Counted from the first letter of the stretch, positions 14,508-40,698 are shown. The stretch is DNA of 64,000 bases from Gammaproteobacteria bacterium (GCA_965221695.1 OZ244905.1:128001-192000); one strand, 5' to 3'. Program-made: numbers and translations. The notes: a model not told the origin generated them from the sequence alone.

Positions 14508-14658
14508 GGAAACTCTGAACAAGTCCATCCTGGACTTGTCAGAGTACGGAAAACAAAAATGCGATTTTTGTTTTCCTCACAAAATCAATGCCTTACTGAC
14601 ATTGATTTTGACGATACATCCTTGTATCGTAGAAACCTCTGACTCAATCAGAGGTTCC
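14508..14658. mobile_element. 151-bp MITE-like element, full copy 1 (five tandem hairpins, IS5-like ends)
   Basis: Ends GGAAACTCTGA...TCAGAGGTTCC; flanks TAAA/TTAA; 143/151 identical to the reverse complement of 40548-40698. Confidence 0.85.
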
Positions 14659-14684
14659 TTAAGTTATATGTTTTCATATGGGAT

Positions 14685-14713
14685 ATGACAGGTCGTGTGG
14701 TTGTATCTATAAT
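14685..14713 (+). promoter_or_regulatory. Putative sigma70 promoter
   Basis: ATGACA-N17-TATAAT, ending 37 nt before the aminotransferase start. Confidence 0.45.
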
Positions 14714-14750
14714 ATGAACTTGTCAAATACGTTAATCGGATAGAACTGAT

Positions 14751-16127
14751 ATGGCAGAAACTGCCAGAAGAACAAATGAATGGCAACAGGCGGATGTGGA
14801 CAATTACCTGCATCCGTTTACCGATTACAAGGCGTTACTTGACGAAAAAGCGCTGGTTATCACGCGCGGGAATGGTTGTTACGTTTGGGACAGCGACGAT
14901 AACAGGTACCTGGACGGACTGGCCGGCTTGGCTTGTGTCAATATTGGTTACGGCCGGGCTGAACTGGGACAGGCTGCCGCGGCGCAAATGGCGGAATTGA
15001 GCTATTTCAACAGTTTTTTCAAGTCGACGAATCCCAAGGCAATAACCTTGGCCGAAAAACTGGTTGAGATAACGCCGGATGCATTGAATCACGTCTTCTT
15101 CGCCAACTCCGGTTCCGAGGCAAACGATACCGCGTTGCGCATGGTAAGACAGTATTGGATGCTTGAAGGGCGGCCGGAAAAGCAGACGGTGATCGCCCGG
15201 GAGATGTCCTATCATGGCAGTACCGTGGCGTCCGGCGCCTTGTCAGGCATGCCGTGGATGCATGAACAAGCCGCCGTAATGCCCGATGTTGAACATATTC
15301 AGTGTCCATACCAATTTCAGTATGGCCGGGATATGAGCGAGGAAGAGTTCGGGACGCTCGCTGCGCGCTGGCTCGAAGACAGGATTCTGGCGACCGGCCC
15401 TGAGAAGGTGGCTGCGTTTTTTGCCGAACCGGTGCAAGGGGCCGGCGGCGCAAAGATACCGCCGCGGAACTATTTCGCAGAAATCCGGAAGATCTGCAGC
15501 AAATATGATGTATTGCTGGTTATAGATGAGGTGATTACCGGGTTTGGCCGGACCGGAAAATGGTTCGCCAGCGATCTTTTGCAGATAGAACAGGTGGACT
15601 TGATGTGTGTCGCCAAGGGAATCACCTCCGGCTACCTGCCACTCTCTGCGGTTATGGTCGGCGACCGGATAGCGGATACGCTGGTCGAAAAAGGTGGTGA
15701 GTTCTATCACGGATTTACCTATTCCGGCCATCCGGTGAGTTGCGCAGTGGCCCTTGAAAATATGCGCATCCTGGACGAAGAGGGAATAATCCGGCAGGTT
15801 GGGGAAGTGACCGGACCCTACCTGAAACAACGTTTGGCAGCATTGTCCGGGTCGCCGCTGGTAGCAGAGACGCGCAGTTGCGGCATGATTGCCGCGGTCG
15901 AACTGGTGAGGGATAGCGATACCATGGAACCGATTGCGGACAATATGGAAGACACTGAGCGGTTTACTGAAGTGTTTCGCGACCTGTGTCTCGAACAGAG
16001 GATTATCGTGCGCCCGATTGGCTCAACGATCATGCTGTGTCCGCCGTTGATCATTGCAGAACAGGAAATCGACTTCCTGGTGGAAAAAATGCAAACTGCC
16101 CTGGAGAGGTTTGAGAAGATTCTCTAG
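14751..16127 (+). CDS. Class III PLP aminotransferase (omega-amine/putrescine:pyruvate, SpuC-like)
   Basis: HPFT, YLDGLAGL, SGSEAND, SYHGST, EPVQGAGG, DEVITGFGRTG, AKGITSGY (PLP Lys) and HGFTYSGHP motifs. Confidence 0.9.
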   Translation: MAETARRTNEWQQADVDNYLHPFTDYKALLDEKALVITRGNGCYVWDSDDNRYLDGLAGLACVNIGYGRAELGQAAAAQMAELSYFNSFFKSTNPKAITLAEKLVEITPDALNHVFFANSGSEANDTALRMVRQYWMLEGRPEKQTVIAREMSYHGSTVASGALSGMPWMHEQAAVMPDVEHIQCPYQFQYGRDMSEEEFGTLAARWLEDRILATGPEKVAAFFAEPVQGAGGAKIPPRNYFAEIRKICSKYDVLLVIDEVITGFGRTGKWFASDLLQIEQVDLMCVAKGITSGYLPLSAVMVGDRIADTLVEKGGEFYHGFTYSGHPVSCAVALENMRILDEEGIIRQVGEVTGPYLKQRLAALSGSPLVAETRSCGMIAAVELVRDSDTMEPIADNMEDTERFTEVFRDLCLEQRIIVRPIGSTIMLCPPLIIAEQEIDFLVEKMQTALERFEKIL

Positions 16128-16197
16128 CGAGGGCGCATACGGCGCGGTTTGTAACAGCACGAAAGCGAACTGCTGTTATCTCCGGGATAACCAAATG

Positions 16198-17397
16198 CTA
16201 TGTCCAGGATCGCAATGTCCTGAGAGCAACCTCGTTTTCGATTTGTTTCGGCGCTGGCTGCGGACCAACAGGCAATGATTGTCCGTCTTTTGCCAGGCAG
16301 GCCAGGGACAGGGATTGCAGCGCCAGGCCCAGATCCATGATTTCGATGGGATTGCCGTCGCCGGCGGTCAGGTTGACCGAGTTGCCTTCACCCAACAGGT
16401 AGACAGTTTTGCCATTATCCAGCTTGAATTTCCGTATTTCCGGCATTATCGAGTCTGATACGACTGACAGTTCGCGTAGTCCTGCCAAGTCAATCTCTGT
16501 TTCAAACATGCCGGCGTTGCAAAGAACCGCGCCGTCCTTCAGTAGTGTCAGGTCCTCGCGGCTTAGCGCGCCCGGCCTGCCGGTGACTGTGATGACGAAA
16601 TCGCCGAAAGGCAAAGCCTGGCGCAACTCAGCCGTATCATAACCTTCTGTATGCGCTTCCAGGCGCGTCAGTGGGTCAATGTCGACGACAGTCACGCGCG
16701 CGCCTAGGCCGCGCAAGGCGCGTGCGATCCCCTGGCCGCAGAAACCATAGCCTACCAGGATGACGCGCTTGCCGCCAAGTAACAGGTTGGAGCAGCGCAT
16801 GATGCCGTCAACCACCGACTGGCCGACGCCGTATCGGTTTTCGATGATGCGTTTTGCCCGGCTGTCATTGATGACGATAGTGGGAAATAAGTGTCCCGCG
16901 AGCTCCTCGCGCAAGCGGAAGCCGCCGGTGGTGGTCTCTTCGGTAGCGCCGATTATCCTTGACTTGATCCCGGAGAAATCCGGATTGGTCAACGCCAGCA
17001 TATGCATGTCCGCGCCGTTGTCTGCGATCAGATCGGGTTCAGTGGCCAGCGCTCGCGCCGCGTATCCCAGATGTTGCGCATACGTTTCAGTTTTCCTGGC
17101 AAATACCTGTACGCCGTATTCCGCTACCAGCGCCGCAGCCACCTCATCCTGGGTGGTTCCCGGACTGCCGGTAATCGCGATCTTTGCGCCACCGCTGATC
17201 AATGCCTCCAGCCAGACACCGGTTTTCGCTTCAACATGCAGGCAGATGCCAATACGCATATCTGCGAACGGCCTGGTCCGGGCAAAGTCCTCTTTTATTT
17301 CGCGTAGTATCGGCATTCGCGCCCGCACCCAGTCCATACGCCGCAAACCTTGACGCGCCAGACCAATGTCTTCTATCTCGTATGATAAATCAGTCAT
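16198..17397 (-). CDS. Adenosylhomocysteinase-family protein, divergent paralogue
   Basis: CLHVEAKT, TQDEVA, EETTTG, INDS..K...ENRYG and GYGFCGQG NAD motif; several canonical active-site residues are changed. Confidence 0.85.
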   Translation of the reverse strand: MTDLSYEIEDIGLARQGLRRMDWVRARMPILREIKEDFARTRPFADMRIGICLHVEAKTGVWLEALISGGAKIAITGSPGTTQDEVAAALVAEYGVQVFARKTETYAQHLGYAARALATEPDLIADNGADMHMLALTNPDFSGIKSRIIGATEETTTGGFRLREELAGHLFPTIVINDSRAKRIIENRYGVGQSVVDGIMRCSNLLLGGKRVILVGYGFCGQGIARALRGLGARVTVVDIDPLTRLEAHTEGYDTAELRQALPFGDFVITVTGRPGALSREDLTLLKDGAVLCNAGMFETEIDLAGLRELSVVSDSIMPEIRKFKLDNGKTVYLLGEGNSVNLTAGDGNPIEIMDLGLALQSLSLACLAKDGQSLPVGPQPAPKQIENEVALRTLRSWT

Positions 17398-17401
17398 TCA
17401 A

Positions 17402-18925
17402 TCATAAGACGCGCCCGAAACCTGGTTTGCCGTTCTCGACGACAAAACGCGCCAGGTCAAAGGCTTCAGATTGCGCATCTCTTACATTATCTATCGCTCG
17501 TGCGGTTGCCAGCCACTCCTTTGCATTGACTTCATGCAGCAGATAGCCGCGTTTATCCGGCTCGTAGAATTTTATCTGTGGGTTACGGGCCAGGTTGTCT
17601 GTTATAGGCTGATCCATCTGTTCTGGCCAGTTGGCCGAAATGGAGGATACCACAAACTCCACTCCTGGAAATCGCTCGGCTGCCACGCCGGACCGTGTTC
17701 CGTCAATCGCCCAGAAAGAGTGCATATCACCGCTCAGGACTACTGCCTGACCGGCGCGGCTCCGCCTGATGGCGCTGACGACCCTGTCTCTGTTTGCCGG
17801 GTAACCGTCCCAGGAACCCGTAAAGTTGAGGGTTTTATTGCCGATGTCCAAGTGGAAGGGTGAAAACACGCTGGTGGATGCAATCACATTCCATGCTGAT
17901 TTGTTGCTCGCTATGCTTTCCGCTAACGACCGTTCCTGGGTATCCCCCAGCATGCTGCGTTCTTTATCGAATATTCCAGGACAACGTTCACGGTAGTTGC
18001 CGAAGCCGTATGCAGGATTGTTATTGCTGCAGAGATACTGGTTGTCACGGAATTGGCGGGTGTCCAGCAGGTTAAGCTGAATAATGTCCCCGACGTGAAT
18101 AGTTCTTTGGAGCTCAAACCGGTCGTCACCGGGGTTGCTGTAACCACGAACCGGCATGTGTTCATACCATGCCTGGTAGGCGGCGGCTTTTATCGCCAAT
18201 TTGGCCGGGTCGGTATCAATAACGGCATCGTGGTTATCCAGTATCGAAAAAAAAGGCAACCTGGCATGGGCCCGTTGCAGGGATTCATCGGTTTTGTACA
18301 ACGCGTGCCGGCGCCGGTAACCGTCAAGCGTCAGCGGCATGTCCTCAGTCTCGTGTCTCCTGAAGTTTACACCGTAGGATGTTTCATAGATGTAGTCGCC
18401 CAGGTGGATGACAAAATCCGGATTGTCTGTAATGATATGGTCGTAAGCGATGAAATAGCCGTGCGCATAATTCTGGCAGGATGCCGTGATAAAACGGATG
18501 GGTTTCGTTTGACTGCCGAGCGCGGGAAGAGTCCTGGTGCGGCCCGGTTTTGAGACGTGAGCCCCCGCGCTGAAGCGATACCAGTATACCCGCCCCGGTT
18601 CCAGGCCCTGGATATCGACATGAACCGAATGGGCCAGTTGGGGAACAGCCGATTGCTCGCCGCTCCTGATGAGTTGCCGCATGTCCTCATCCTGGAATAA
18701 CTCCCAACGCACCGGAATGGCGTCCTGGCCGAGCCCGCCATCTGCGACCAACGGTTCCGCCGCAAGCCGGGTCCAGAGTATCACCGAATCCTGTGTGACA
18801 TCCCCGGAAGCGACACCCAGCGTAAACGGATTCCTGGCTAGGTTGGTATCTGCAACAAGCGGCGCCGAAACCTTTGTTGCCGCCAACCCCAGGGTTGAGT
18901 TGATGATGAAATCGCGTCTTTTCAT
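17402..18925 (-). CDS. phoD: Alkaline phosphatase D (Tat-exported)
   Basis: MKRRDF Tat signal; PFTLGVASGD, ASCQ, HLGDYIYE, DNHD, LDTRQFR, WDGY and LSGDMH motifs. Confidence 0.9.
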   Translation of the reverse strand: MKRRDFIINSTLGLAATKVSAPLVADTNLARNPFTLGVASGDVTQDSVILWTRLAAEPLVADGGLGQDAIPVRWELFQDEDMRQLIRSGEQSAVPQLAHSVHVDIQGLEPGRVYWYRFSAGAHVSKPGRTRTLPALGSQTKPIRFITASCQNYAHGYFIAYDHIITDNPDFVIHLGDYIYETSYGVNFRRHETEDMPLTLDGYRRRHALYKTDESLQRAHARLPFFSILDNHDAVIDTDPAKLAIKAAAYQAWYEHMPVRGYSNPGDDRFELQRTIHVGDIIQLNLLDTRQFRDNQYLCSNNNPAYGFGNYRERCPGIFDKERSMLGDTQERSLAESIASNKSAWNVIASTSVFSPFHLDIGNKTLNFTGSWDGYPANRDRVVSAIRRSRAGQAVVLSGDMHSFWAIDGTRSGVAAERFPGVEFVVSSISANWPEQMDQPITDNLARNPQIKFYEPDKRGYLLHEVNAKEWLATARAIDNVRDAQSEAFDLARFVVENGKPGFGRVL

Positions 18926-18968
18926 TCGAGGTATAATACTACTCCCTTTCTCATTCCGGGCAATCATT

Positions 18969-19445
18969 ATGCCGTTAAACAAGCTGGATGCAGCCGCTAT
19001 GGAAGCAGTGATGCGTGAATACTACGACGGATGCAATGAGGCAGATGAAGAGAAGATAATGCGCTGTTTTACAATTGATGCGGTCCATTATTTTCCGCCG
19101 GGCATGTACGAGGGACCGTTCCGCGGCGCCGGAAAGATTGCAGAACGCTGGCGCGCAGCCGTGGAAAACGGTGGATCATACTGGACCATAGACGCTATGC
19201 TCATCGATACGGACAAGGCTGAGGCAGTGATCGAATGGACTCATTTCAAGACCAACCAAGGGACAATCCTGCGCGGCGCGGAATGGGTCGTGTTCGACAG
19301 GGATACAGGATTGATGAAAGAGATCCGGGCCTATTATGCCTCTCCGCAGGCTACGGGCCTGGAGCGTCTTGAATTGGGAGGATTTGACTACGCGGCACGC
19401 GGTTACAAACTGGTCTCCCCAAGGAGCCGTTCAAATCGTCAGTAG
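18969..19445 (+). CDS. SnoaL/NTF2-like protein
   Basis: 158 aa; YYDGCN...FTIDAVHY, AVIEWT, RGAEWVVF and IRAYY pattern; divergent from phoD. Confidence 0.7.
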   Translation: MPLNKLDAAAMEAVMREYYDGCNEADEEKIMRCFTIDAVHYFPPGMYEGPFRGAGKIAERWRAAVENGGSYWTIDAMLIDTDKAEAVIEWTHFKTNQGTILRGAEWVVFDRDTGLMKEIRAYYASPQATGLERLELGGFDYAARGYKLVSPRSRSNRQ

Positions 19446-20468
19446 CTCGCTTACCTGTCTGTGGCTCCGAACAATCCTGTATGCGCCTGCCTCGCACAGG
19501 CTGGCAGACGTGCCGGCGCCGGTCAGCACCGCGATGGGTAGCATCCCTGCGGCGCGACTCGCCTGCATATCAATAACGCTGTCGCCTACATAGACCGCGT
19601 CGCCCGGGGCGATGTCCATGCGTTTCAGGCACTTGTTCAGGCCCTCCGGGTCGGGTTTGCGTTTTTTTACGTCAGGGCCGGTGATGACTGCCTCGAACAT
19701 ATCCGCGACCCCCTGGCTATAGAGCAAATCTAACGACCATTTATCCGAACCGGTGACTATGCCGAGGGCAAAGCCGGCGCTCTTGAGTTCAACCAGTGTC
19801 TGTTGCACCCCGGCAAAGGCCTCGGCCTGGTCCTTGATCAGATCAGGCCAGAGTTCCATGGCCCTGGTATTCAATTTTTTGATCATGGCGGGCCGCTCAT
19901 CCATTGATTTCGGCGCTACATGGTCCCAATAGGAAATACCGCGATTCAGGGTTTCATACATGCGTTCTTTGGATACCTCCAGGCCGAATTCCGCGCCGGT
20001 GCGTCGAGCGAGCTGGTAGAATGCATCCACCGTATCCACCAGGGTGCCGTCCAAATCAAACAGGACGGCGCTGGCCCTGACAGGCTTGAGCAGTTTCAGG
20101 GTGAGGCGGTCTCCATCCTTGAGGGATAAACATTGGCGCAGTGATAATGGCGCGATGACCTCAACCTGGTCCGCCGGATAACCGTTGACTTCCGGGAAGA
20201 CAATAGCGCCGGTAAGCTGGTTGTTGATTTGTACCGGATATGTTCGGGCATCACAGTTGTTCCCGTCTGGCGAGCTGATGCCGATACCATCAGCATTCCT
20301 CATGGATCCCCATCGGGCTAGCGAGTCGGCATCGTCCAGCTTGATATTCAGGGTGCCGGGCCAGGTATTGATGCCCAACTTATCCAGGAACTGGTGTTTT
20401 GCATGCTCTATCTCGGTGAAACCCGCAGCCTGCCCAGTTCCGGTCACGACCCGGCCGGATAATTCCAA
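19431..20468 (-). CDS. CTP-dependent riboflavin kinase (archaeal-type) fused to a HAD phosphatase
   Basis: N-half: GRVVTGTGQA, KLG...PGTLNIKL, EVIAP..LR..L.LKDGD. C-half: FDLDGTLVDT, IVTG, KPDPEG, YVGDS..D. TTG start at 20468 after GGAGA. Confidence 0.8.
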   Translation of the reverse strand: MELSGRVVTGTGQAAGFTEIEHAKHQFLDKLGINTWPGTLNIKLDDADSLARWGSMRNADGIGISSPDGNNCDARTYPVQINNQLTGAIVFPEVNGYPADQVEVIAPLSLRQCLSLKDGDRLTLKLLKPVRASAVLFDLDGTLVDTVDAFYQLARRTGAEFGLEVSKERMYETLNRGISYWDHVAPKSMDERPAMIKKLNTRAMELWPDLIKDQAEAFAGVQQTLVELKSAGFALGIVTGSDKWSLDLLYSQGVADMFEAVITGPDVKKRKPDPEGLNKCLKRMDIAPGDAVYVGDSVIDMQASRAAGMLPIAVLTGAGTSASLCEAGAYRIVRSHRQVSELLTI

Positions 20469-20472
20469 CTTT

Positions 20473-20934
20473 CTAATTCTCCCGTTGTAGTTCAGCGGCG
20501 CGGTGAATAGCGGCGCGGATGCGCTGGTAAGTTCCGCAGCGGCATATGTTGCCGGACATCGCCATATCGATATCCTTATCGGAAGGGGAGGGGTTTTGGT
20601 CAAGCAGCGCCACGGCTGACATGATCTGTCCTGACTGGCAATATCCGCATTGCGGAACCTGTAATTCAATCCAGGCCTGCTGCAGCGGATGGTAACCGTC
20701 TTTAGCCAGGCGCTCTATAGTGGTAATTTTCCTGTTTCTGACACTGCTCACCGGGAGCACGCAAGAGCGCATGGGTTTGCCATCGACATGAACGGTGCAG
20801 GCGCCGCATTGGGCGATCCCGCAACCGAACTTGGTACCGGTCAATCCGATCTCATCCCGGAGCGCCCATAACAGCGGTGTATCTGCTTCCACATCGATTT
20901 CATAGGACTGGTCGTTAATGTCGAGTTTGATCAT
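20473..20934 (-). CDS. iorA: 2Fe-2S subunit, isoquinoline 1-oxidoreductase alpha-like
   Basis: [38 protein letters not shown] and NICRCGTY motifs. Confidence 0.85.
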
Positions 20935-21170
20935 ATCTTTCCGGTGGCGCGCATCAGGTTATAACTCGGTATGTGAGCAATATAATCCAGAATGAACCGA
21001 ATTTGTATTATTTTTGGACTGAGCAATGCGCCGCCTCTTGGGATCGTGGACTTTCCCTCCTGCGCAGATACCATGCGCGAAAAGTTTCCTGGGAAGGGTG
21101 TATGGACAACGACTCATTGCCGATTGGATTTTCGTTTTCACGAATAGGGTATGAGTAGTAGAATGTGGCC

Positions 21171-21776
21171 ATGGGGAGCGCCAGCGTTTACATTCCAGGG
21201 TATGAAGGTCGCGCCGTACGGATTGATGCGGGCCGAATCTTTCGGGTGGTGGATGTGGAAGGCTGCCAGATTGCTGATATGTTCACCTTGTCCGCCACCG
21301 ACATCAATGAGTATTTCAGCCCGGCGCTGACGCGCCAGGTCATCTTCAGACTCACACCTGTGCCCGGCGATATCCTGTACAGCAACCGCCGCCGTCCCAT
21401 GCTTACCTTCCTGCGCGACAGGTCTCCCGGACGGCATGATATGGCTTTTGCCCCCTGCGACCCGGGATTTTACGTCGATCTGGAGGCGGATGCCTCGCAC
21501 CCGAATTGTCGGGATAACTTTTACCGTGCGATCAGCGAACTCAACCTCAGTATGGAACCGCCACCAGATCCTTTTAACCTGTTCCAGAATACGGTTCCGA
21601 AGGAAAACGGCGATTATGCAGTTGGGCCGACACTGAGCAAAGCGGGTGATTACGTCGAGTTCAGGACTGAAATGGATGTATTTGTTGTGGTAACCGCCTG
21701 TTCGGCGGATTTGCCGTTTGACGGCGTTGAACCCATCGGCGGCAAGTCGACCCCGCTGCGTATCGATTGTGTCTGA
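21171..21776 (+). CDS. DUF1989 / urea carboxylase-associated family protein
   Basis: VVDVEGCQIAD, LYSNRRRPML, GRHD...PC, NCRDN, PFNLFQN and VTACSAD motifs. Confidence 0.85.
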   Translation: MGSASVYIPGYEGRAVRIDAGRIFRVVDVEGCQIADMFTLSATDINEYFSPALTRQVIFRLTPVPGDILYSNRRRPMLTFLRDRSPGRHDMAFAPCDPGFYVDLEADASHPNCRDNFYRAISELNLSMEPPPDPFNLFQNTVPKENGDYAVGPTLSKAGDYVEFRTEMDVFVVVTACSADLPFDGVEPIGGKSTPLRIDCV

Positions 21777-22914
21777 GTTGCGGCGCGACACTGTCACGCA
21801 TGTCTCAGGCGTTTGCGCTGCCCAGGCGCTGGCAATTACAACGGCCATTCTGTCTCCGCTGGCCGTGGGCAGCCTGATCATCGGCCTGGAGATCGGCGAA
21901 GTTGAAGCGGGCGCGCTGATTACCGCCGAACTGCTGGTACTGGGGACGACCAGCATCCTGATGGCGCCGTTGGGTGTCAGGATACCGTATCGCATCCTGG
22001 CCCTGGCCGGAGGCATCATGGTCATTAGCGGACATGGCGGCGCGGCAACGGCAACTGGCCTGAATGAATTGTATCCGTGGCGGCTGTTGGCGGGAATAGG
22101 TTGCGGCTGCCTGCTGGCGACGGTGAATGCCGCGATTGCCCAGGCCCGGAACCCGGATCTGTTATACGGCCTGGCCTGGGCCGCGGCCTATAGCTTCAGT
22201 TCCGTCATGGCTATTGCGATTACCGAGAACAACGAGTTGGTCACCTATCAGGTATTGTATGGCGCTCTGGCCATAACACAGTTGCTTTTACTGCCCTTGC
22301 TCTGGTTTGTGCCGGATCATGGTAATCCGCGAACATCGATTTCACTGCCTGCGGGCAGTATTCGCGCTGGCTGCATGCTGATGGCGGGGATCATACTTAT
22401 GGGTGTCAGCGTGATGGTGTATTATGCTTTCCTGGAACGGTTGGCGGCGCAAATTGGCGCGGCGCCGGCTGCAGCCGGTCGCATCGTTGCTGCGGCCCAG
22501 GTTGCCGGCATTGTGGGCGGTTTGCTAGCTGCGCCGGTAGCCCGCAGGTTTGGTCTGACGGTGGGACTGTGCGCTGCCACCATATTGCATGCCTTGGCAA
22601 TCAGCCTGGCTGTCTGGACCAGCTCGGTGTTGACGCTGGGCATCATCGCCTTTTTTGAGGCTGTGCTGTTTATTATAATGATACCGCTGATGCTGACCCT
22701 GGCAGCCGGTATTGACGATAAAGGTCGTTGGGCAGCCACTGCCGGAGGCGTATTTGTTCTCAGCACTGCGCTGGGGCCGTTTTTCGGCGCGTTGCTTATA
22801 CAGCAGGCAGGGTATGACGCCATTGCCTGGGTACAGTGGCCGGCAGCGTTGCTGGCGGTCACTATTTTTACCCGGGTGGCCACTACACGACAGCGACAGG
22901 CTGAGCAGGTCTGA
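21769..22914 (+). CDS. MFS transporter
   Basis: About 12 hydrophobic helices; WRLLAGIG and PVARRFG MFS-like motifs; GTG start overlaps the upstream stop. Confidence 0.75.
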   Translation: MSELRRDTVTHVSGVCAAQALAITTAILSPLAVGSLIIGLEIGEVEAGALITAELLVLGTTSILMAPLGVRIPYRILALAGGIMVISGHGGAATATGLNELYPWRLLAGIGCGCLLATVNAAIAQARNPDLLYGLAWAAAYSFSSVMAIAITENNELVTYQVLYGALAITQLLLLPLLWFVPDHGNPRTSISLPAGSIRAGCMLMAGIILMGVSVMVYYAFLERLAAQIGAAPAAAGRIVAAAQVAGIVGGLLAAPVARRFGLTVGLCAATILHALAISLAVWTSSVLTLGIIAFFEAVLFIIMIPLMLTLAAGIDDKGRWAATAGGVFVLSTALGPFFGALLIQQAGYDAIAWVQWPAALLAVTIFTRVATTRQRQAEQV

Positions 22915-22983
22915 ACAAGCTCATGCCGGACTTGTCAGAGTGGAATTTCCGTGTATCGCCAATGGCTCTGACCTAACCCGAGT
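22910..22983. repeat. Degenerate MITE copy, supplies the MFS stop codon
   Basis: tctgaacaagctcatgccggacttgtcagagt, then tgtatcg and ctctgac remnants; the TGA at 22912-22914 lies inside it. Confidence 0.7.
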
Positions 22984-23008
22984 TTTTTTACGATTTTTTG
23001 GAGGGGGT

Positions 23009-28646: not shown

Positions 28647-28666
28647 TTCTTGATAAAGCCCATTAT

Positions 28667-28694
28667 GGAACCTCTGGATTAAGTCAGAGGTTTC
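28667..28694. repeat. MITE fragment (end hairpin)
   Basis: ggaacctctggattaagtcagaggtttc. Confidence 0.75.
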
Positions 28695-31330: not shown

Positions 31331-31334
31331 TCAA

Positions 31335-31395
31335 GGAACCTCTGCTTGAGTCAGAAGTTACATGCTCTGACAAGTCCGGGATGGACTTGTTCAGC
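31335..31395. repeat. Internally deleted MITE copy (both end hairpins)
   Basis: ggaacctctgcttgagtcagaagtt followed by ctctgacaagtccgggatggacttgttcag. Confidence 0.8.
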
Positions 31396-31431
31396 TTGCT
31401 CAAATGTAATCCTCTGACGCACACTGAGATA

Positions 31432-31513: not shown

Positions 31514-31535
31514 AACACCTGGATTAATCTGACAA

Positions 31536-31564
31536 TTGTAAATGATATTATTAATGATTATACT
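31536..31564 (+). promoter_or_regulatory. Putative sigma70 promoter of the amidohydrolase-nitrilase-Mo hydroxylase operon
   Basis: TTGTAA-N17-TATACT, 20 nt before the first ATG. Confidence 0.5.
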
Positions 31565-31584
31565 CAGGCCAGTGTTACTTCCCG

Positions 31585-32979: not shown

Positions 32980-33168
32980 GCTGATATGACGGCAGGTATC
33001 CACCCAATCCTTGAATGTCGTGTTCCCGTATCTGTCTTGCAATATGACAGTACAGGCGCCGGTTCCTTGTCGTTACACCGGCAAGGATGCCGGCGCGCCG
33101 TTTTCAGTCGTTGTTGGAATGGCAGTCGACCGCTTTGAGCAGGTTGAAAATCAGTAGACGCTATCAAT

Positions 33169-34059
33169 ATGATTCCTGAGCGATATCAGCGCTATGAGGA
33201 GACAGTGACACTGGGATGCGTCAACTATCAAAGTATCTGGAACGATAAAGATGCGAGCGTTGCCAAGGTTAAAAAATTGATCGGAGAAGCGGCAGACCAG
33301 GGGATCAACATATTGGCATTTCCGGAATTGTCACTGAGTGGCTACGAGAGTAATGAAGACAATACCATGCACAAGGCGTTCGCGGAGACTATTCCTGGTC
33401 CAATCACCGAGGAGATTGCAGAACTGACCCGGAACCGGGATATCTACGTAGCTTTGGGTATGCCGGAGTATAGCGCTGAAGGCGATGGCGCCTGTTACAT
33501 TTCTTGCCCATTAATCGGTCCTGAAGGCTTGATCGGCGTTTATCGGAAGTTGCATTTAGGCGAACCGCCTTTGTTCAGAGAGAGCCTGTGTTTTAGCCGC
33601 GGCGACAGTGTGCCGGTTTTTGAAACCCGCTATGGTCCGATCGGACTGCAGATTTGCGCGGATTTTTGGGTCTTTCCCGAACTGTCTCGCATCCTGATGC
33701 TGAAAGGCGCGCGCGTTATTATCAACAGTACCGCAAGCATGACCCTGCCGGGCAGACCGTTTTATATCAACTCCATGACCACTGCCCGGGCGACTGAGAA
33801 CCTGGTTTATGCGGCCAGCGCCAACCTGGTAGGGCAGGAAAACACCTTGTCCTATTATGGTTGTAGCCTGATCTCAGGACCCGCATTTCCCCGCTTCTCT
33901 CATATTTATGCCCAAGCCGAAGACAAGGAAGAGATCATCAGCGCAACATTGAGTTTTGCCAAACTCCACCGCTTCCGCTCAGCGGTAGCGCTGGATAAGC
34001 TCAGACGCGCTGATCTCATCCGGGATGAGTTCAACCGACTGCAGAGCAGCGAGAATTAA
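33169..34059 (+). CDS. Carbon-nitrogen hydrolase (nitrilase/carbamoylase superfamily)
   Basis: E-K-C triad: FPELSLSGY, YRKLHL, QICADFWVFPE. Confidence 0.9.
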   Translation: MIPERYQRYEETVTLGCVNYQSIWNDKDASVAKVKKLIGEAADQGINILAFPELSLSGYESNEDNTMHKAFAETIPGPITEEIAELTRNRDIYVALGMPEYSAEGDGACYISCPLIGPEGLIGVYRKLHLGEPPLFRESLCFSRGDSVPVFETRYGPIGLQICADFWVFPELSRILMLKGARVIINSTASMTLPGRPFYINSMTTARATENLVYAASANLVGQENTLSYYGCSLISGPAFPRFSHIYAQAEDKEEIISATLSFAKLHRFRSAVALDKLRRADLIRDEFNRLQSSEN

Positions 34060-34074
34060 CAGGAGCGAAGCAGT

Positions 34075-34554
34075 ATGCCGGCAATCAGTAAGGAAATTAC
34101 CGTTAATGCGCCACTGGAGAGCGCCTGGGCTCTGGTCAGCGATATGCAACGTTTCAGCTTGTGTATACCGGGTTGTAAGGAGGTTAAGACGATTAGCGAA
34201 ACAGAATTTGACTGGAAACTGGAGACCAAAGTCCTACGCACAACCCGTAAGGCGACAGCCAGGACCAGGGCTGTTAAGATGACGCCGCCGAAGCACGCGG
34301 AGTTTGTTGGCGAGGGCAGATTATTTGAAAGATCAAACCATTATAAACTGACGATATCCGGCGCCACTGACCTGGAAGCGTTGGCAGACGGCAAAACCTT
34401 GTTACGTTTCGCCGGTGATGTGAAAGCCAGTGGTCTGGGTGGAGCCATAATCGAAAAGGTGGCAGCGGGGCAATTGGACAGCTTGTTTGATGAATTTGAA
34501 GATAATATAAAACACGCCCTGGGCGACGAAACAGAACCGGAACAACATACGTAA
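34075..34554 (+). CDS. coxG: CoxG-like SRPBCC protein
   Basis: W...SD......CIPGC motif and operon context. Confidence 0.75.
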   Translation: MPAISKEITVNAPLESAWALVSDMQRFSLCIPGCKEVKTISETEFDWKLETKVLRTTRKATARTRAVKMTPPKHAEFVGEGRLFERSNHYKLTISGATDLEALADGKTLLRFAGDVKASGLGGAIIEKVAAGQLDSLFDEFEDNIKHALGDETEPEQHT

Positions 34555-34567
34555 CGAGGAGATACGG

Positions 34568-35431
34568 ATGGAATATTACAGTCCGACTACGCTTGCTGAG
34601 GCTTATTCATTGCTGAATAAGTACGGCGAGGGGGCGATCCCGATTGCCGGCAGCACATTTTATATGGGACACCGGGAGGAATTGTTTGACGAAGTTGACG
34701 CGGTGATCAATATCAAACGACTTGGTCTCAGTTATATTAAGTTGGCGCACGACGGTTTACATATCGGCGCTACTACTACCCTGAACGAAATTTTCAACCA
34801 CGAGTTGACCCGCCAGGGCGTGTACGGGATTTTGGCCGATACGGTGAGCAGGCTTAACATTAATGAGGTCAGGAATATGGCCACTATCGGCGGCGAGGTA
34901 TGTATCGCCGGAGAAGTGGATATGCCGACGACCTTGCTTGCTTATGATGCCAACATCGTTATTGGCAGCAGTAAAGGGACGCGTTCCATGTCCATGGCGG
35001 ATTTCCATATCGGTTATCTGAACAATGCTCTGCAGGAAGGTGAGATCGTGCTGGAAGTGCATGTGCCGCCCCCGCCCGAGCAGACCGGCGCTGGTTTTGC
35101 CAAGTTTGAAAGGACCGCGGCGGACCTGCCCATCGTCAACGTGGCAACCCGCGTGTCGTTGGATGGCGGAGTTTGCAGTGAAGCGCGGATCGTTGCCGGC
35201 GCCGCAACCTTATCCGGTGTGCCGGAACGATCAGCGACTGCAGAAGCGGCGCTGCAAGGCAAGACAATTGACGAAGGCCTGATTGCAAGCGCGGCCGCGG
35301 CGGCGGACGATATCGAATGCATTAATGACTTCCGCGTCTCTGCGGAGGTGCGGCGTCTCTGGGTGCGCTGCGGTATAGAGGATGCATTGAAACAGGCGAC
35401 CGCCCAGGCGCGGCGAGGAGGTGAGGAATGA
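34568..35431 (+). CDS. Molybdenum hydroxylase FAD-binding medium subunit (CoxM/XdhB-like)
   Basis: YYSPTTLAEA, IAGST, IGATTTL and VRNMATIGG motifs. Confidence 0.9.
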   Translation: MEYYSPTTLAEAYSLLNKYGEGAIPIAGSTFYMGHREELFDEVDAVINIKRLGLSYIKLAHDGLHIGATTTLNEIFNHELTRQGVYGILADTVSRLNINEVRNMATIGGEVCIAGEVDMPTTLLAYDANIVIGSSKGTRSMSMADFHIGYLNNALQEGEIVLEVHVPPPPEQTGAGFAKFERTAADLPIVNVATRVSLDGGVCSEARIVAGAATLSGVPERSATAEAALQGKTIDEGLIASAAAAADDIECINDFRVSAEVRRLWVRCGIEDALKQATAQARRGGEE

Positions 35432-35922
35432 ATGCAATTCGCTTGAGGATAAACAATGAAGACCACGATGTGCTGGTCAAACCACATTGGTCGCTGGCGT
35501 ATGTCATCCGGGAAAAAATAGGTCTGACCGGAACCAAGGCAGGTTGCGAGATGGGCACCTGTGGTTCCTGTACTCTGCTGTTGAGCGGCGAACCGATTTT
35601 TTCCTGCCTGCGCATGGCTATTGACGCCCAGGATAGCGACATACGCACCATTGAAGGCCTGGAAGAGGAAAACGGCGGCAGGCTGCACCCGCTGCAAGAA
35701 GCGTTCATACAGGATCATGGCATGCAGTGCGGTTTCTGCACTCCTGGTATGATCCTTGCCGCTAAGGTCCTGTTGGAAAAGAACCCCGATCCGTCGGAGC
35801 AGGAAGTGCGGGAAGCAATAGGCGGGCATTTATGTCGCTGTGGCACTTACGTCAGGATCGTTCGTTCAATCCTGAACGCGGCCCAGGCAATGCGTAACGC
35901 ATCTGAAACTAAATCCTCATGA
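35428..35922 (+). CDS. Molybdenum hydroxylase 2Fe-2S small subunit (CoxS/XdhC-like)
   Basis: GTKAGCEMGTCGSCT, QCGFCTPG and HLCRCGTY motifs. Confidence 0.92.
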   Translation: MNAIRLRINNEDHDVLVKPHWSLAYVIREKIGLTGTKAGCEMGTCGSCTLLLSGEPIFSCLRMAIDAQDSDIRTIEGLEEENGGRLHPLQEAFIQDHGMQCGFCTPGMILAAKVLLEKNPDPSEQEVREAIGGHLCRCGTYVRIVRSILNAAQAMRNASETKSS

Positions 35923-36106
35923 TCAAGGTGTTGCGCAAATATTTAACATTTGGTGCCGGCCAGAGCATTCCCCCGTACCATCGTCGCAACAGCGGGAATC
36001 CGGTAGACACTAACATTACCCCTTATATTGGAGGGCTGCTCACTGGATTCCTGGTCCTCGTGTCGAATTGAATCGTGAGCATATTATCAATCGGAGGTAG
36101 TAAATA

Positions 36107-38413
36107 ATGAAAGCCGAAACATCTGTAGTCGGCAAAAGTCTGCCCTTGCTGGATGCCTATGAAAAGGTGACCGGCAAACTGAAATACGCCGGCGACATGC
36201 CGTCGCTGCACCGCATGCACTATGCCAAGGTGTTGCGCAGTCCCTATGCGCATGCGCGGGTCACCCACATCGACACCAGCGCCGCCGAGGCATTGCCGGG
36301 GGTTAGCGCGGTGATCACCCACAAAGACGATATCACCGGCAAACAAAAGACCTGTGGCACGCCCTGGGTGGATCCCAGCTTCAATTTTCGCGGCCCGATG
36401 ATCTCCGATGAAGTCTGTTTTGTGGGCGATGAGGTAGCGGCTGTGTCCGCGATCGACGAGGACATTGCCAAACAAGCCCTTGCGCTGATCGAGGTGGAGT
36501 ACGAGGAATTGCCGGCAGTTTTCGACTTGGAAGAAGCTATGCGTGAGGATGCCCCGCAGGTGCGTCCCTGGGGCCCCAATACCCTACCGCCTTCTTTATT
36601 CGAATGGGGGGATATTGAGCAGGGTTTTGCGCAATCGGACATCATCATCGAGAATCGGGTGACCATGGGCAACCAGCAGCACGCGCCGCTGGACCGCAAT
36701 GCCTGTATTGCCAACTGGGAAGGCGACAGTCTCTCCATATGGACCTCAACCCAGGCGTTGTTCTGGATCAGGGACGCGCTGACAGACTTTTTTGACCTCT
36801 CACCCAGCAAGGTGCGCGTCTACAGCACGCCCACCGGCGGCTCCTTCGGGCTATGGTGGGGCAACAACTTCATGTTCCTGGCTGCGGCATTGGCGCGCAA
36901 ATCCAGGCGTCCGGTGCGACTGATCCTGACCCGGGATGAGGTACAGACCACCGTGAAGCGCCGCGAGCGCCCACTGATTGACGTAAAGATAGGCATGAAT
37001 AAAGAGGGCAAGATGCTTGCCCAGTCTTTTCGCCACATTCTGGATAATGGAGCATACGGCAACAAGTTCGATCCCTACCAATCCGTCGCCGATATTTACA
37101 CTACCGATCATGGCCGGGTGGAGTTTGTCGGCGTGGCCACTAATCTGGTTACCGCCGGCTGTATGCGCGGAGTGGGAGACCTCACCCTGGCCTATGCCAT
37201 TGAGCAGACGGTGGATATGGCCGCGGAAAAGATCAACATGGACCCGGTGGAATTCCACCTGAAGAACCATTGGAAGAGCGGCGACATCTGCCATACTTCC
37301 CAGGAGGTGGTGTTTGCCAAGCTGCTGTTCAACAAAAGCCCGCAAGTCGAACTGACCAGCTCCGGGTTGGCCGAGTGTATTACCCGCGGCGCCGAAGCCA
37401 TAGGTTGGCAGGACAAATGGAAAGGTTGGGGCAGACCTTCTTCGGTAGACGGGCATAAAGTGCTCGGTGTCGGCATGGGCATCTCCACCCACATCAGCGG
37501 TCTGGCTTTCTTCGGCTTTAATGGCATCACAGTTAAGGTGAACCCCGACGGCACCATGGCCTTGACCACGGGTATCGGCCGTATGGGGCAGGCCGGCGAC
37601 ACTACCCAGGCTATGGTGTGTGCCGAGACGCTTGGTGTGGAGTTGGAAGATATCAATGTGATCGATGGTGATTCTGAGGTATGCGGGCATACGATGGTTA
37701 CATTCGGGAGCAATGGTATGCACATGGTGGCCCGCGCCACCAAGGCCGCAGCCGAGCACGCCAAAGAGCAACTACTGGTTTACGCAGCCAAACACCTGGA
37801 AGCTAACCCGGCAGATCTAGATATCAAAAACCGTCGGGTATTTGTTAAGGGCAGCGAAGAGCGTGGCGTTACTTTGAAAGAGTTGATGAGCACACCCATT
37901 TATGAATACTTGTCGCCGCCGGAAGTGATAGGCAGCGCCTCAAAAGGCGTTGAATTTGAAAAAGCGGGCAAGATGATGATGGCGGACTTCGCCGAAGTGG
38001 AAATTGACACGCGCACTGCGCAGATGAAGCTGATTAGGTTTGTCGCCGTCCATGACAGCGGCACCATTGTCAATCCGGCGGTGTGCGAAAACCAGGTGGC
38101 CGGAGGCTATTACCAGTCCATGGGTTTTACCACTACCGAACACTTGGTGTTTGACGATGAAACCGGCGCTATTCTCAATCCCAATTTCATGGACTACAAG
38201 ATAGTCGGACCACTGGACATGCCTGATCCGGAGATCATGTTTGAAGAGGTGTACGATGAGCACGGCCCGTACGGGGCCAAAGGAATAGGCGAGGGCGTCA
38301 CTTGCGCGGTGCCGGTTGCCATATCCAACGCAGTCTACAACGCGATCGGGGCGCGACTTGACCCACCCATCACACCGGATAAAATACTACAGGCATTGAA
38401 ATCCAAGTCGTAA
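36107..38413 (+). CDS. Molybdenum hydroxylase large subunit (xanthine dehydrogenase family)
   Basis: KVTG, RSPYAHA, QHAPL, GGSFG, MRGVG, MGQAG, NP....QV.GG and GAKGIGE motifs. Confidence 0.92.
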   Translation: MKAETSVVGKSLPLLDAYEKVTGKLKYAGDMPSLHRMHYAKVLRSPYAHARVTHIDTSAAEALPGVSAVITHKDDITGKQKTCGTPWVDPSFNFRGPMISDEVCFVGDEVAAVSAIDEDIAKQALALIEVEYEELPAVFDLEEAMREDAPQVRPWGPNTLPPSLFEWGDIEQGFAQSDIIIENRVTMGNQQHAPLDRNACIANWEGDSLSIWTSTQALFWIRDALTDFFDLSPSKVRVYSTPTGGSFGLWWGNNFMFLAAALARKSRRPVRLILTRDEVQTTVKRRERPLIDVKIGMNKEGKMLAQSFRHILDNGAYGNKFDPYQSVADIYTTDHGRVEFVGVATNLVTAGCMRGVGDLTLAYAIEQTVDMAAEKINMDPVEFHLKNHWKSGDICHTSQEVVFAKLLFNKSPQVELTSSGLAECITRGAEAIGWQDKWKGWGRPSSVDGHKVLGVGMGISTHISGLAFFGFNGITVKVNPDGTMALTTGIGRMGQAGDTTQAMVCAETLGVELEDINVIDGDSEVCGHTMVTFGSNGMHMVARATKAAAEHAKEQLLVYAAKHLEANPADLDIKNRRVFVKGSEERGVTLKELMSTPIYEYLSPPEVIGSASKGVEFEKAGKMMMADFAEVEIDTRTAQMKLIRFVAVHDSGTIVNPAVCENQVAGGYYQSMGFTTTEHLVFDDETGAILNPNFMDYKIVGPLDMPDPEIMFEEVYDEHGPYGAKGIGEGVTCAVPVAISNAVYNAIGARLDPPITPDKILQALKSKS

Positions 38414-38429
38414 CAACTGTAGTACAATA

Positions 38430-39089
38430 ATGAGTCGTGATGTGGACGGCGCAGTAGAGCGCCTGAGAAAAGATATTCTGCAAGGGCGGTTTGTACCCGG
38501 CCAGCGTCTGGTGGAAGTTGATATCATGGCGCACCTGGGGATAACCAGGGGAAAAGTGCGCGATGTGTTCAAGCGCTTGCATACTGAAAAGATTGTGCAA
38601 CTGGATAGAAACCGGGGCGCATCCGTCAGAAAGGCATCGCGGGACGAGGTTTACAATATCTTCGAGGTGTTGGAGGAAATCTCGATTCTGATTATCAGGA
38701 AGATCAATGAGCAGAGTGACAAGGCTCATCTTCAGAAACGTCTACTCGCCGCGCTGGCCAGCGCGCAAAAGTTTCACGGCCGTTCAGTCAATATCGTCAA
38801 CGTGACCGAGTACATGGATGAGAACGCTCGCTTCTGGGGCGACCTGGCAGAGATGGCAGGCAACCCGGTGCTCTCGGACATCCGTCTGCGCTTGCAGGCG
38901 CCACTATTCAGGTTGGCAATGGAAGGACTGACGGTAAAAGGCAGCCACGATCAGTGGATAGCTCGCCATGAAGAGATAATCAGCGCGTTGCTGGACAACA
39001 ACCTTCGGCAAGCCGTCCGCCATGCAAGAAAATCCATGCACGATGTCTGGAAAGCCATCCTAACTCTCCCCGACGCAGCATTTGCCTGA
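38430..39089 (+). CDS. GntR-family regulator (FCD domain)
   Basis: PGQRLVE...LGITRGKVRD wHTH, NRGASVR, C-terminal HEEIISAL. Confidence 0.85.
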   Translation: MSRDVDGAVERLRKDILQGRFVPGQRLVEVDIMAHLGITRGKVRDVFKRLHTEKIVQLDRNRGASVRKASRDEVYNIFEVLEEISILIIRKINEQSDKAHLQKRLLAALASAQKFHGRSVNIVNVTEYMDENARFWGDLAEMAGNPVLSDIRLRLQAPLFRLAMEGLTVKGSHDQWIARHEEIISALLDNNLRQAVRHARKSMHDVWKAILTLPDAAFA

Positions 39090-39224
39090 AAATCGTCCTG
39101 GGGATAACGTTTTACCGGACCGCCTCCCTGAGACCTCAGTCCCATGGTAGGGCGGGGGCTGGCTACGGAATCCAGTGAAATACATCGTTGCCAACGGCAG
39201 CATATTATCTGCATCTGCAAGAAA

Positions 39225-40517
39225 TCAAACCAACCCCAACTCCCAATACACAAACAACGCCACCAGACAAACCCCCAACATCGCCACTGCATACCCCGCA
39301 TTCCAGCGCATCAATGTGAATGAAGAAGTTCCAAACCTTCCCTGCAAAGTCAGATTAATCCCGGAAAAAGGCGAAACCACAATGCTGCTGCCCCACATCA
39401 TCATCATCGCAATCCCCAACAAGTTGGCATTGTAAGGTGTATTGCTGAGCAATCCACCCAGGATGGAAATCGTAATAATCGGATGAATGCCCAGCAATGA
39501 AAGCAACATCGCCGCGAAGATAAATCCCCCGGCCGTCGCCGGCGACACTGCGCTAATTCCCAGGGACACGTCGCTGCCCATCAGCGCCGCAGAAATCCCG
39601 GTAGACATTACCCCGGCTGCCAGAAACAGCGTGAGTTCCCTGTGCATCCCCGGCAGACCGGTATTGATATGAGAGATTAGCAGGCCGCCCGCCGCGCGCA
39701 GGTTGCGAACCAGCAACATCACCACCGTAATCAGCAACGCCAGGATGGTAATCAGGGTCAATACCGGGAAATCCGGGAACAACTCGTGCAACCCGATTAC
39801 CGCCAACGACAGCGCCAGCGGAACAAACAAGGTCTCAAAGCGCAATGGGTACCCACTGGTGTCCTCACTTTCCTTATCCCGCAACAATTGCCAACTGGTG
39901 ATAAGCAATCCGCATAGGGCAATCGGTATACCTGCCAGTATCAGCGTCAGCAAACCGGAGCCGGGCGCATAGACCAGTGCGGTGGCGATAGACACATAAA
40001 ACGGCGACCAGTAACAGCCGCTACAGAACGCCCGGGAAAACAGGATTAGCTGTAACCGATTGATCTTGCCGGCCTGCTCCATCCTGTTGCCGAAGATCAT
40101 CACCGCTGACAGGTTGATCACCGAAGCAAACAGGTGCAAGCCCCAGATGGTCTTGGCAAGCGCCATCCTGCCCTTAGGCGCCTCCGCCGTTTGTGCGTCC
40201 TGCCCGGTAATCAGCCGCAGAAATGTCACCGACGCAATCAGCGCCAATACGTGAATATTCGCCGCTGCCACCCGTGACCAATCCACCGGTAAACGGTTCA
40301 GCACAGACCAGGCCAGGCAACCTGCTCCCACCAGTAACATCCCGGAAATCTGCACAACCATCGCCCGCGGCAAATCCCGACACAGCAGCAGCGCCGCCAA
40401 CCAACCGCAAAGCCCGGCCCACACCGGCGACACTGACGATGACACAGCCGCGCCCACCGCTAACAGCATCATCAACAATAACAACCCGCCAGGTAGCTCA
40501 ATGCGCACTTTGAACAA
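39225..40517 (-). CDS. Polytopic membrane protein, putative transporter
   Basis: Many hydrophobic helices; WSPF, GIHP and SPFSG motifs. Start uncertain. Confidence 0.65.
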   Translation of the reverse strand: MFKVRIELPGGLLLLMMLLAVGAAVSSSVSPVWAGLCGWLAALLLCRDLPRAMVVQISGMLLVGAGCLAWSVLNRLPVDWSRVAAANIHVLALIASVTFLRLITGQDAQTAEAPKGRMALAKTIWGLHLFASVINLSAVMIFGNRMEQAGKINRLQLILFSRAFCSGCYWSPFYVSIATALVYAPGSGLLTLILAGIPIALCGLLITSWQLLRDKESEDTSGYPLRFETLFVPLALSLAVIGLHELFPDFPVLTLITILALLITVVMLLVRNLRAAGGLLISHINTGLPGMHRELTLFLAAGVMSTGISAALMGSDVSLGISAVSPATAGGFIFAAMLLSLLGIHPIITISILGGLLSNTPYNANLLGIAMMMMWGSSIVVSPFSGINLTLQGRFGTSSFTLMRWNAGYAVAMLGVCLVALFVYWELGLV

Positions 40518-40547
40518 GAACTCCGATTAACTTTAATACTCTTTTAA

Positions 40548-40698
40548 GGAACCTCTGATTAAGTCAGAGGTTCCTACGATACAAGGATGTATCGTCAATA
40601 TCGATGACTGTAAGGCATTGATATTGAGAGGAAAACAAAAATCGCATTTTTGTTTTCCGTACTCTGACAAGTCCAGGATGGACTTGTTCAGAGTTTCC
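40548..40698. mobile_element. 151-bp MITE-like element, full copy 2 (inverted relative to copy 1) with TTAA target duplication
   Basis: TTAA at 40544-40547 and 40699-40702; ends GGAACCTCTGA/TCAGAGTTTCC; five hairpins. Confidence 0.9.

Follow-up and report, generated by a model that had tools for sequence, protein, structure and literature searches.

Insertion sequences (IS) of the IS5 group include the closest described counterparts of the element reported here, a 151-bp transposable element of the miniature inverted-repeat kind (MITE) with two full copies in a 64,000-nt stretch of the genome of a Gammaproteobacteria bacterium. This stretch, hereafter "the window", corresponds to positions 128001-192000 of contig C1 of genome G000, a 3,539,060-bp single-contig assembly with 55% G+C and 96.85% completeness; positions given without a genome name are counted from the first letter of the window. 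IS5 targets YTAR sites, and IS5-group elements and the MITE alike duplicate a 4-bp YTAR target. Termini in this group, represented by Escherichia coli IS5 and by ~1,150-bp relatives in genomes G001, G022, G057, and G076, start with GGAA; the MITE shares GAACAAGTCC with IS5, and the ends of the IS found in these relatives match those of the MITE at 16-18 of 18-19 positions. Unlike the IS5 group, however, the MITE is devoid of a transposase gene, its interior is unrelated, and each of its termini is folded on an inverted copy of itself.

Correia/NEMIS, ERIC, and RUP elements fold chiefly by pairing their two terminal repeats into one long stem, whereas the termini of the MITE pair locally and the element forms a row of five (more in one variant) separate, modular hairpins. 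These and other bacterial MITEs are presented in the passage cited here as small, AT-rich, intergenic sequences bounded by terminal inverted repeats, whose transcripts fold stably (PMC10969869). A close analogue of the MITE in size, flanking repeats, and compensated multi-stem fold is bcr1 of the Bacillus cereus group, for which the portion of the source used here gives a length of ~155 bp, short direct-repeat flanks, a strain-variable location, and a multi-stem fold kept by compensatory changes (PMC3184786). It differs in belonging to another phylum, in its 5-bp duplications, and in being reported as transcribed, and that same portion mentions neither IS5-type termini nor a parent element. 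Rows of hairpins with GGA loops are also found in the CsrB, RsmY, and RsmZ sponge RNAs, and hairpin 2 (H2) of the MITE carries the consensus obtained for the protein CsrA by systematic evolution of ligands by exponential enrichment (SELEX). Unlike these sponges, however, the MITE has GGA in only two of its five loops, is not matched above chance by the corresponding Rfam models, and is a mobile repeat rather than a single regulated gene.

The element represents a new family of a known kind, namely an ordinary bacterial MITE. A first-pass annotation of the window had suggested a possibly undescribed structured RNA or repeat family, and this agrees with our searches: the element has no match at Rfam gathering thresholds (the best sub-threshold score, for STnc250, is 22.8 vs 42 bits, and its sub-threshold hits are at chance level), and its termini did not occur in the literature searched. 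Our favored reading, which we consider highly probable, is that this IS5-group MITE transposed in trans, that its fold was kept among source copies, and that it is now stranded in G000.

Family structure, parent elements, and mobility

The two full copies lie in opposite orientations in the window, and "top strand" denotes hereafter the element strand reading 5'-GGAACCTCTGATTAAG:

40548-40698, + strand: MITE copy 2, full 151 bp, top strand on the window + strand; query of the family search (100%)
40548-40574, ~40576-40595, ~40596-40626, ~40630-40658, and ~40661-40694: hairpins H1, H2, H3, H4, and H5 of copy 2, respectively
40544-40547 (left) and 40699-40702 (right): target-site duplication of copy 2, TTAA, 4 bp each
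14508-14658, - strand: MITE copy 1, full 151 bp, top strand on the window - strand
14504-14507 and 14659-14662: flanks of copy 1, TAAA and TTAA, i.e., TTAA/TTTA in element orientation, with one mismatch

The first-pass annotation had described 14508-14658 and 40548-40698 as inverted copies of one 151-bp unit built of five hairpins, and this description was borne out on each point examined. Of the 8 positions at which the copies differ, 4 lie in loops or linkers, 2 make up a compensatory change in hairpin 3 (A:T to T:A), and 2 produce G·T wobbles, in both cases on the top strand; copy 2 is bordered by TTAA on either side. On either strand, copy 2 has these five hairpins as its minimum-free-energy fold, with -75.5 kcal/mol for the + (top) strand (z = -11.5) and -70.1 kcal/mol for the - (bottom) strand (z = -11.2), and 0 of 200 shuffles were as good in either case. 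The terminal inverted repeats, GGAACCTCTGA and TCAGAGTTTCC at opposite ends, span 11 bp with one mismatch. Coding capacity is nil, the sole open reading frame (ORF) of at least 60 aa that overlaps a copy (14430-14642, 70 aa) entering from the flank, and a consensus scan for promoters and terminators within copy 2 found none.

Across G000, BLASTN identified 90 near-full copies (at least 130 nt aligned to copy 2; 44 on the + strand and 46 on the - strand) that share 75-100% identity with copy 2. The GGAA and TTCC ends are intact in 67 of them, and the 4-bp flanks of these end-intact copies are identical in 51 and one base off in 11 more. Identical flanks consist of TTAA (26 copies), CTAA (6), TTAG (5), TTTA (3), CTAG (2), TAAG (2), CTTA (2), and 5 singletons, with 39 of the 51 conforming to YTAR; as a background, TTAA represents 0.18% of G000 4-mers. 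Based on crude longest-ORF gene calls, 78 of the 90 copies lie between ORFs, and the 12 "inside" cases sit at ORF ends. Many copies adjoin a stop codon, since TAA or TAG is part of the target. For copies c00, c29, c31, c33, c36, and c56, neighboring ORFs extend 11-12 nt into the element and end at the TGA of its terminus (CTCTGA); at these sites, the last codons of the gene are replaced by the insertion, and the stop comes from the element. Two elements overlap by one terminal hairpin at G000:1445255-1445529, and more copies and solo hairpins are found within 1.6 kb at G000:93913-95495, which suggests insertion into or next to existing copies.

The family also includes modular forms. Solo end-hairpins outside of full copies number 145 (24-34 bp, with 71 of 27 bp and 58 of 29 bp), and 52 of them have identical 4-bp flanks, again chiefly TTAA, CTAA, and TTAG. 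Flanked intermediates comprise H5 alone (41-43 bp), H1+H5 (67 bp), H1+H2+H5 (83-86 bp), and H1+H4+H5 (91 bp), while six loci have a long (~221-bp) variant, in which an additional GC-rich module of ~70 bp separates H2 from H3. Interior hairpins are rarely seen outside of the element (H2 alone and H4 alone, three times each). Beyond G000, a distribution search of 41 genomes, 24 of which matched (G000 included), detected the element in 19 of the 22 remaining congeneric genomes and in 4 genomes from different genera, one of the same family and three of other families of the class. The E. coli genome searched with the element yielded only chance matches of 26-35 nt.

The assignment to IS5 had been based on the IS5 terminus given in the first-pass annotation, which proved correct when checked on E. 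coli IS5 (locus L214): this 1,195-bp element begins with GGAAGGTGCGAACAAGTCCC directly after a flanking CTAA, a YTAR, and its first 19 nt match the element end GGAAACTCTGAACAAGTCC at 15 of 19 positions. An IS5-family IS with the same ends, which the first-pass annotation had proposed to look for, is present in relatives, including an intact copy in the same genus. The latter, in G001 (L207), is a 1,149-bp IS with TTAA/TTAA flanks and an intact 313-aa transposase, whose ends match those of the MITE at 16/18 and 17/18 positions. Also in this genus, L115 (G022) is a 1,150-bp element with CTAA/TTAA flanks and MITE-like termini, encoding a transposase (PF01609, 5.7e-28; DUF772, PF05598, 1.9e-19) with one interrupting TGA. 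At the position of this TGA (L115/L208), which looks like a simple inactivating change, the proteins of G001 and G057 carry tryptophan (ILPW). Other transposase copies in G022 and G014 are split. Searching the taxonomic family with the L115 protein retrieved L123 (G057) and a similar element, L122 (G076). L123 is a 1,151-bp IS with TTAG/TTAG flanks, whose end downstream of the transposase gene, GGAACCTCTGATTAAGTC, is identical to the first 18 nt of the MITE, and whose end upstream of this gene, GGAACCTCTGAACAAGTCC, matches the last 19 nt of the MITE at 18 of 19 positions; MITE and IS share these terminal 18-19 nt only. Its 315-aa transposase scored 334 bits against NCBIfam NF033581 (IS5 family; cutoff 140) and is 46.5% identical to an E. 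coli plasmid protein annotated as "IS5-like element IS5 family transposase".

PF01609 genes of various kinds occur in 16 of the 23 genomes of the genus, and homologues of the transposase at E <=1e-40 in 3 of the 22 other than G000; when 12 PF01609 loci of the genus (L109-L120) were scanned for MITE termini, only L115 was bounded at both ends. PF01609 gave 0 hits in G000, an assembly of one contig, 96.85% complete, outside of which plasmids would fall, and none in its closest relative, G008. The earlier statement that no transposase for the element is present in the window can hence be extended to the rest of G000, in which a decayed remnant of the parent IS is retained (G000:1594572-1594655; transposase codons 1-29, 75% identical, start codon changed to ATA). 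Since this 29-codon remnant is all that is left of the transposase gene, any movement in recent times needed a transposase that has been lost or lies outside of the assembly. A 1,423-bp segment with element-like ends (G000:3411609-3413031) was considered as a parent IS and rejected, as it consists of a transporter gene between element remnants.

Evidence of movement came from 51 distinct copies collected from loci of relatives, whose flanks were placed on G000 (copies with <250 bp of flank in the locus were left out). Six copies occupy orthologous sites in a relative and in G000 (gap of 150-154 bp). At L098, the relative displays TTAA-element-TTAA and G000 a single TTAA, with flanks 100% and 99.6% identical that overlap by exactly 4 bp; this is a clean empty site in G000. 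The L082 site is probably also empty in G000, with more diverged flanks. At L063, a full element in the relative is matched in G000 by a 27-bp solo hairpin with flanks 98% identical, and the 124 bp absent in G000 are enclosed by two direct copies of GGAAGCTCTGA, one at the outer terminus and the other within the inner H1 arm. This solo hairpin, at the very least, thus arose by deletion, much as a solo long terminal repeat (LTR) does.

At the copy 2 site, 849 bp of the window (40510-41358), including the copy and two small ORFs, are absent in G008, in which 8 other bases are found instead, and one contig from run X3 joins 40509 to 41359, i.e., the same allele lacking 849 bp. Contigs of four DNA runs included no MITE-only empty allele of this site. 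The copy 1 site in G008 was likewise considered as an empty site and discarded, as the copy found there belongs to a different subfamily and points the other way. In the metagenomic runs X1-X4, short-read contigs covering 40548-40698 mostly stop at the element, and several join H1 or H2 straight to H5 (skipping 68-86 nt), so that shorter modular forms exist in these samples too. Overall, the 90 copies, the 4-bp YTAR duplications, the clean empty site, and the parent elements with the same termini uphold the initial identification of a non-autonomous IS5-family MITE.

Covariation and the level of selection

Our alignment included 120 copies, 116 of them distinct: 70 references stood for 81 copies of G000 (identical ones collapsed), with c04, c12, c13, c20, c24, c28, c29, c49, and c71 left out for their truncated or rearranged ends, and 50 of the 51 copies from relatives were added, L081 being left out for a rearranged end. 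RNAalifold predicted 47 pairs, 21 of which had compensatory changes. When the five-hairpin structure was specified explicitly (58 pairs, 116 rows), 97.9% of cells were paired vs 93.3±0.1% in shuffled alignments, changes on both sides occurred at 21 of the 58 pairs vs 9.2±1.6, and the covariation score was 0.141 vs 0.063, with 0 of 500 shuffles reaching any observed value. A second control, in which partners were slid by 1-3 columns and relatedness was kept, yielded 35-47% pairing and scores <=0.026. The 21 double-changed pairs include 30 alternative Watson-Crick pair types, and amount to 4/11 pairs in H1, 5/8 in H2, 5/11 in H3, 6/13 in H4, and 1/15 in H5, or 16/32 for the interior stems combined. 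Interior stems are thus free in sequence and fixed in pairing, and H5, which bears most of one terminus, is fixed in sequence.

Substitutions private to one copy follow no such rule. Singleton rates are alike for stem columns (0.60 per column, 70 in 116) and unpaired ones (0.54 per column, 19 in 35; p = 0.80), and the 70 stem singletons comprise 30 non-wobble mismatches, 13 A·C, 18 G·T, 8 for which the partner also changed, and 1 at a gap, with 43 of the 70 breaking the top-strand pair. Given equal rates in stems and loops and a majority of broken pairs, landed copies therefore display no sign of constraint. Pairing is kept only in variants common to several copies, i.e., in lineages that multiplied.

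A strand preference is associated with the same lineages. Across top-strand cells, G·T is found 121 times vs 52 for A·C; among wobble types, singletons are split 22 vs 19, while types present in at least three rows are split 17 vs 4 (binomial p = 0.007, indicative only as rows are not independent). The top strand is the more stable one in 72 of the 90 G000 copies, with a mean difference of -3.06 kcal/mol vs -1.0 for the consensus (p = 4e-6, to be taken as indicative for the same reason). Based on cumulative GC skew, orientation relative to replication is even (46 vs 44).

Several claims of the first-pass annotation can be refined accordingly. An interior selected to fold is supported by the covariation across 116 distinct copies, but the constraint is visible only among propagated variants, private substitutions being equally frequent in stems and loops and mostly pair-breaking. 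Strand specificity had been proposed from the two window copies, which are insufficient for this purpose on their own; the family nevertheless shows it, in the propagated G·T excess and in the more stable top strand. Finally, random stem-breaking substitutions on both strands had been named as an observation that would speak against a selected fold: private changes do break pairs freely, while propagated variants keep pairing and favor G·T on the top strand.

These patterns can be accommodated in a single scenario. The gene-less element would have been moved in trans by an IS5-family DDE transposase, as suggested by the identity of its ends with those of the IS at L123 and L207. This transposase would recognize termini of ~19 bp, insert at YTAR (mostly TTAA), and duplicate 4 bp, with each terminus locally paired in its own hairpin (H1 and H5) and H2-H4 filling the interior. 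Stems would be kept if only source copies with an intact top-strand fold seed new copies, and landed copies would then decay neutrally. At least some of the solo hairpins of 27-29 bp would derive from recombination at an 11-bp direct repeat, present in the outer terminus and again in the inner H1 arm, with deletion of the remainder of the element.

Some of our results weigh against this scenario. Mobilization by the IS identified here is deduced from the identity of the ends, and G022, which carries a parent-type IS, gave no MITE match. Recent activity is implied by the 98-99% identity of many G000 copies, even though PF01609 genes are absent in both G000 and G008. A single solo hairpin has an orthologous full copy, and the others could have moved independently. 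As for the alignment, the shuffle control, unlike the slid-partner one, takes no account of relatedness, and the distinction between propagated and private variants uses non-independent rows, in which orthologous copies count separately.

Other explanations of the fold must be considered alongside selection among source copies. It may be kept for transposition at the DNA level, with hairpins or cruciforms compacting the 151 bp so that the termini meet in one transposase complex, or with single-stranded terminal hairpins rebuilding a double-stranded binding site. A constraint confined to propagated lineages is compatible with this idea, as are the positions of the terminal stems (terminus positions 1-11 for H1 and 5-19 for H5), the retention of H1 and/or H5 in every shorter mobile form, and interior stems that vary in sequence and keep pairing. 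The excess of G·T over A·C would further point to a single-stranded form of one strand; a cruciform, however, extrudes both strands and would not generate such an excess. Elements using the lagging-strand template show a replication-orientation bias, which the 46 vs 44 split does not, and the invariant GGA loops are left unexplained. We also know of no IS5-family transposase that uses single-stranded or hairpin substrates, which counts against this explanation, and we regard it as possible but doubtful.

Alternatively, the stems may reflect no structural selection, if template switching or intrastrand repair in quasi-palindromes copies one arm onto the other. According to the part of the literature source used here, template switching both creates and repairs hairpin stems and results in multibase compensatory changes (PMC8794818). 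All stems of the element are near-perfect palindromes, and some double changes were found in one sampled copy, as this process would predict. Yet, among the 70 stem singletons, 61 resulted in a mismatch or wobble, 1 lies at a gap, and only 8 are partner-matched, so that correction is infrequent at individual loci; in addition, template switching predicts no one-strand G·T preference (17 vs 4) and leaves the conserved loops unexplained. On balance, we find it unlikely. Far less credible still is a REP/REPIN-type element moved by a RAYT (an IS200/IS605-like tyrosine transposase), or a host gene for a structured RNA that simply happens to be repeated. Although the element resembles REP/REPIN sequences in its abundant short intergenic palindromes and in solo hairpins that outnumber full copies, this origin is contradicted by the 4-bp target duplications, as REP elements to our knowledge leave none, and by terminal inverted repeats that are the same as in a DDE IS5-family element. 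A structured-RNA gene is similarly disfavored by the absence of any matching Rfam family.

A candidate CsrA site in hairpin 2

The top-strand sequence of H2, across its loop and inner stem, is AUACA(A/G)GGAUGU. The SELEX consensus of CsrA is given in the source passage as RUACARGGAUGU, with ACA and GGA 100% conserved and GGA preferred in a hairpin loop (PMC4347634). The corresponding positions in the window are:

40579-40590, + strand: exact match to the CsrA SELEX consensus RUACARGGAUGU in copy 2, with GGA in the H2 loop
14616-14627, - strand: CsrA-like 12-mer of copy 1

Exact matches to this consensus were identified on the top strand of 81 of the 90 G000 copies and on the bottom strand of none (0/90), and G000 as a whole contains 103 matches, 81 of them within full copies, vs ~1.3 expected from base composition. 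GGA is exposed in the H2 loop in the predicted fold, and the H2 stem is backed by covariation. Departures from the majority base are seen in 2, 1, and 0 of 116 rows at the three GGA positions of H2 and in 58 rows at the R position before them, a combination of near-invariant GGA and variable R that matches the conservation pattern seen in SELEX; likewise, the three loop-proximal H2 pairs have zero compensatory changes, while the outer pairs have up to 40. The GGA of the H5 loop differs in 1, 2, and 1 of 116 rows, with CC.GGATGG kept in 76 of the 90 copies, and the ~70-bp extra module of the long variant opens with a GGA-loop hairpin on the top strand. Among copies from relatives, the 12-mer is kept in 40/51 and ACA·GGA in 49/51, and ACA·GGA is present in 21/21 of those that are 85-90% identical to copy 2. 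Finally, G000 encodes a CsrA homologue (G000:1650034-1650189; PF02599, 90 bits).

The fold might hence be kept because the top-strand transcript is a putative CsrA/RsmA ligand, with H2, and perhaps H5 and the long-variant module, presenting GGA in a loop. This idea, which we put forward tentatively, would add an RNA-level function to the MITE interpretation rather than replace it. Beyond the conservation of the motif, it is consistent with G·T being favored over A·C on the motif strand and with the orientation of copies relative to genes: the motif strand is sense in 13 and antisense in 30 of the tandem gene contexts (p = 0.014, from crude longest-ORF calls, which weakens this test), with 11 vs 24 when only the 90 full copies are counted, a bias that would follow if sense copies interfered with expression. 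On the other hand, the motif was noticed post hoc, and ACAAG is also part of the IS5-type terminus, so that common ancestry may account for a portion of the match. No promoter-like site was found within the element, individual copies are without constraint, and CsrA binding offers no evident benefit for propagation of the element. Models of CsrB, RsmY, and RsmZ detected nothing over threshold in G000, and did not score the element above chance, although these models are lineage-specific and this result thus carries little weight. A search for literature linking CsrA with miniature inverted-repeat elements returned none save the Rfam 12 database paper.

Other family members and biological meaning

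Besides the two full copies, the window includes seven partial members of the family that the first-pass annotation had not mentioned, listed here along with the loci of the long variant:

520-603, - strand: degenerate short form of 84 bp in the bottom orientation, with H5, an H2 remnant, and H1
5680-5720 (end coordinate approximate): solo H5-type palindrome (GGAAGCTCTGAACAAGTCC...GGACTTGTTCAGAGC)
8099-8126: solo H1-type end-hairpin, 28 bp
13100-13126: solo H1-type end-hairpin, 27 bp, degenerate
22905-22945: solo H5-type palindrome, degenerate, with its core at 22910-22941
28667-28694: solo H1-type end-hairpin, 28 bp
31335-31401 (end coordinate approximate), + strand: short H1+H5 form, ~67 bp, degenerate
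G000:382647, 1137734, 1205120, 1317102, 1336080, and 1882183 (outside of the window): ~221-bp variant

Two 113-nt direct repeats, 97% identical, are located at 5567-5679 and 7991-8103, each directly 5' of a solo hairpin: the first stops before 5680, and the second overlaps the first 5 nt of the hairpin at 8099. These repeats and the hairpin may form a larger repeated unit. The only Rfam hit at gathering level in the window is an ALIL pseudoknot (RF01497, 102 bits) at 60162-60278 (+), the frameshift signal of IS3-family elements, and an IS3-type insertion sequence is therefore located close to the window end.

This family provides a clean and well-populated example of a MITE in an uncultured lineage, with copies in no fewer than 19 congeneric species, its parent IS found, modular deletion forms, and LTR-like solo hairpins. 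It will be useful for annotating these metagenome-assembled genomes, in which the repeat breaks short-read assemblies. It also separates two levels of selection, with source copies that keep the fold by compensation and landed copies that decay neutrally, and thereby calls for caution, as covariation within a repeat family is not proof of a host function.

The most interesting point raised by these elements is whether hairpin 2 may be a working CsrA site. Judging from the motif and its conservation, it is conceivable, though less than likely, that the family serves as a mobile vehicle for high-affinity CsrA/RsmA hairpins, whose ~100 copies could bring neighboring genes under Csr control or together titrate CsrA. 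If this were true, selection would explain both the strand-specific conservation of the element and the depletion of sense-oriented copies alongside genes, and transposition would represent a route for spreading post-transcriptional regulatory sites.

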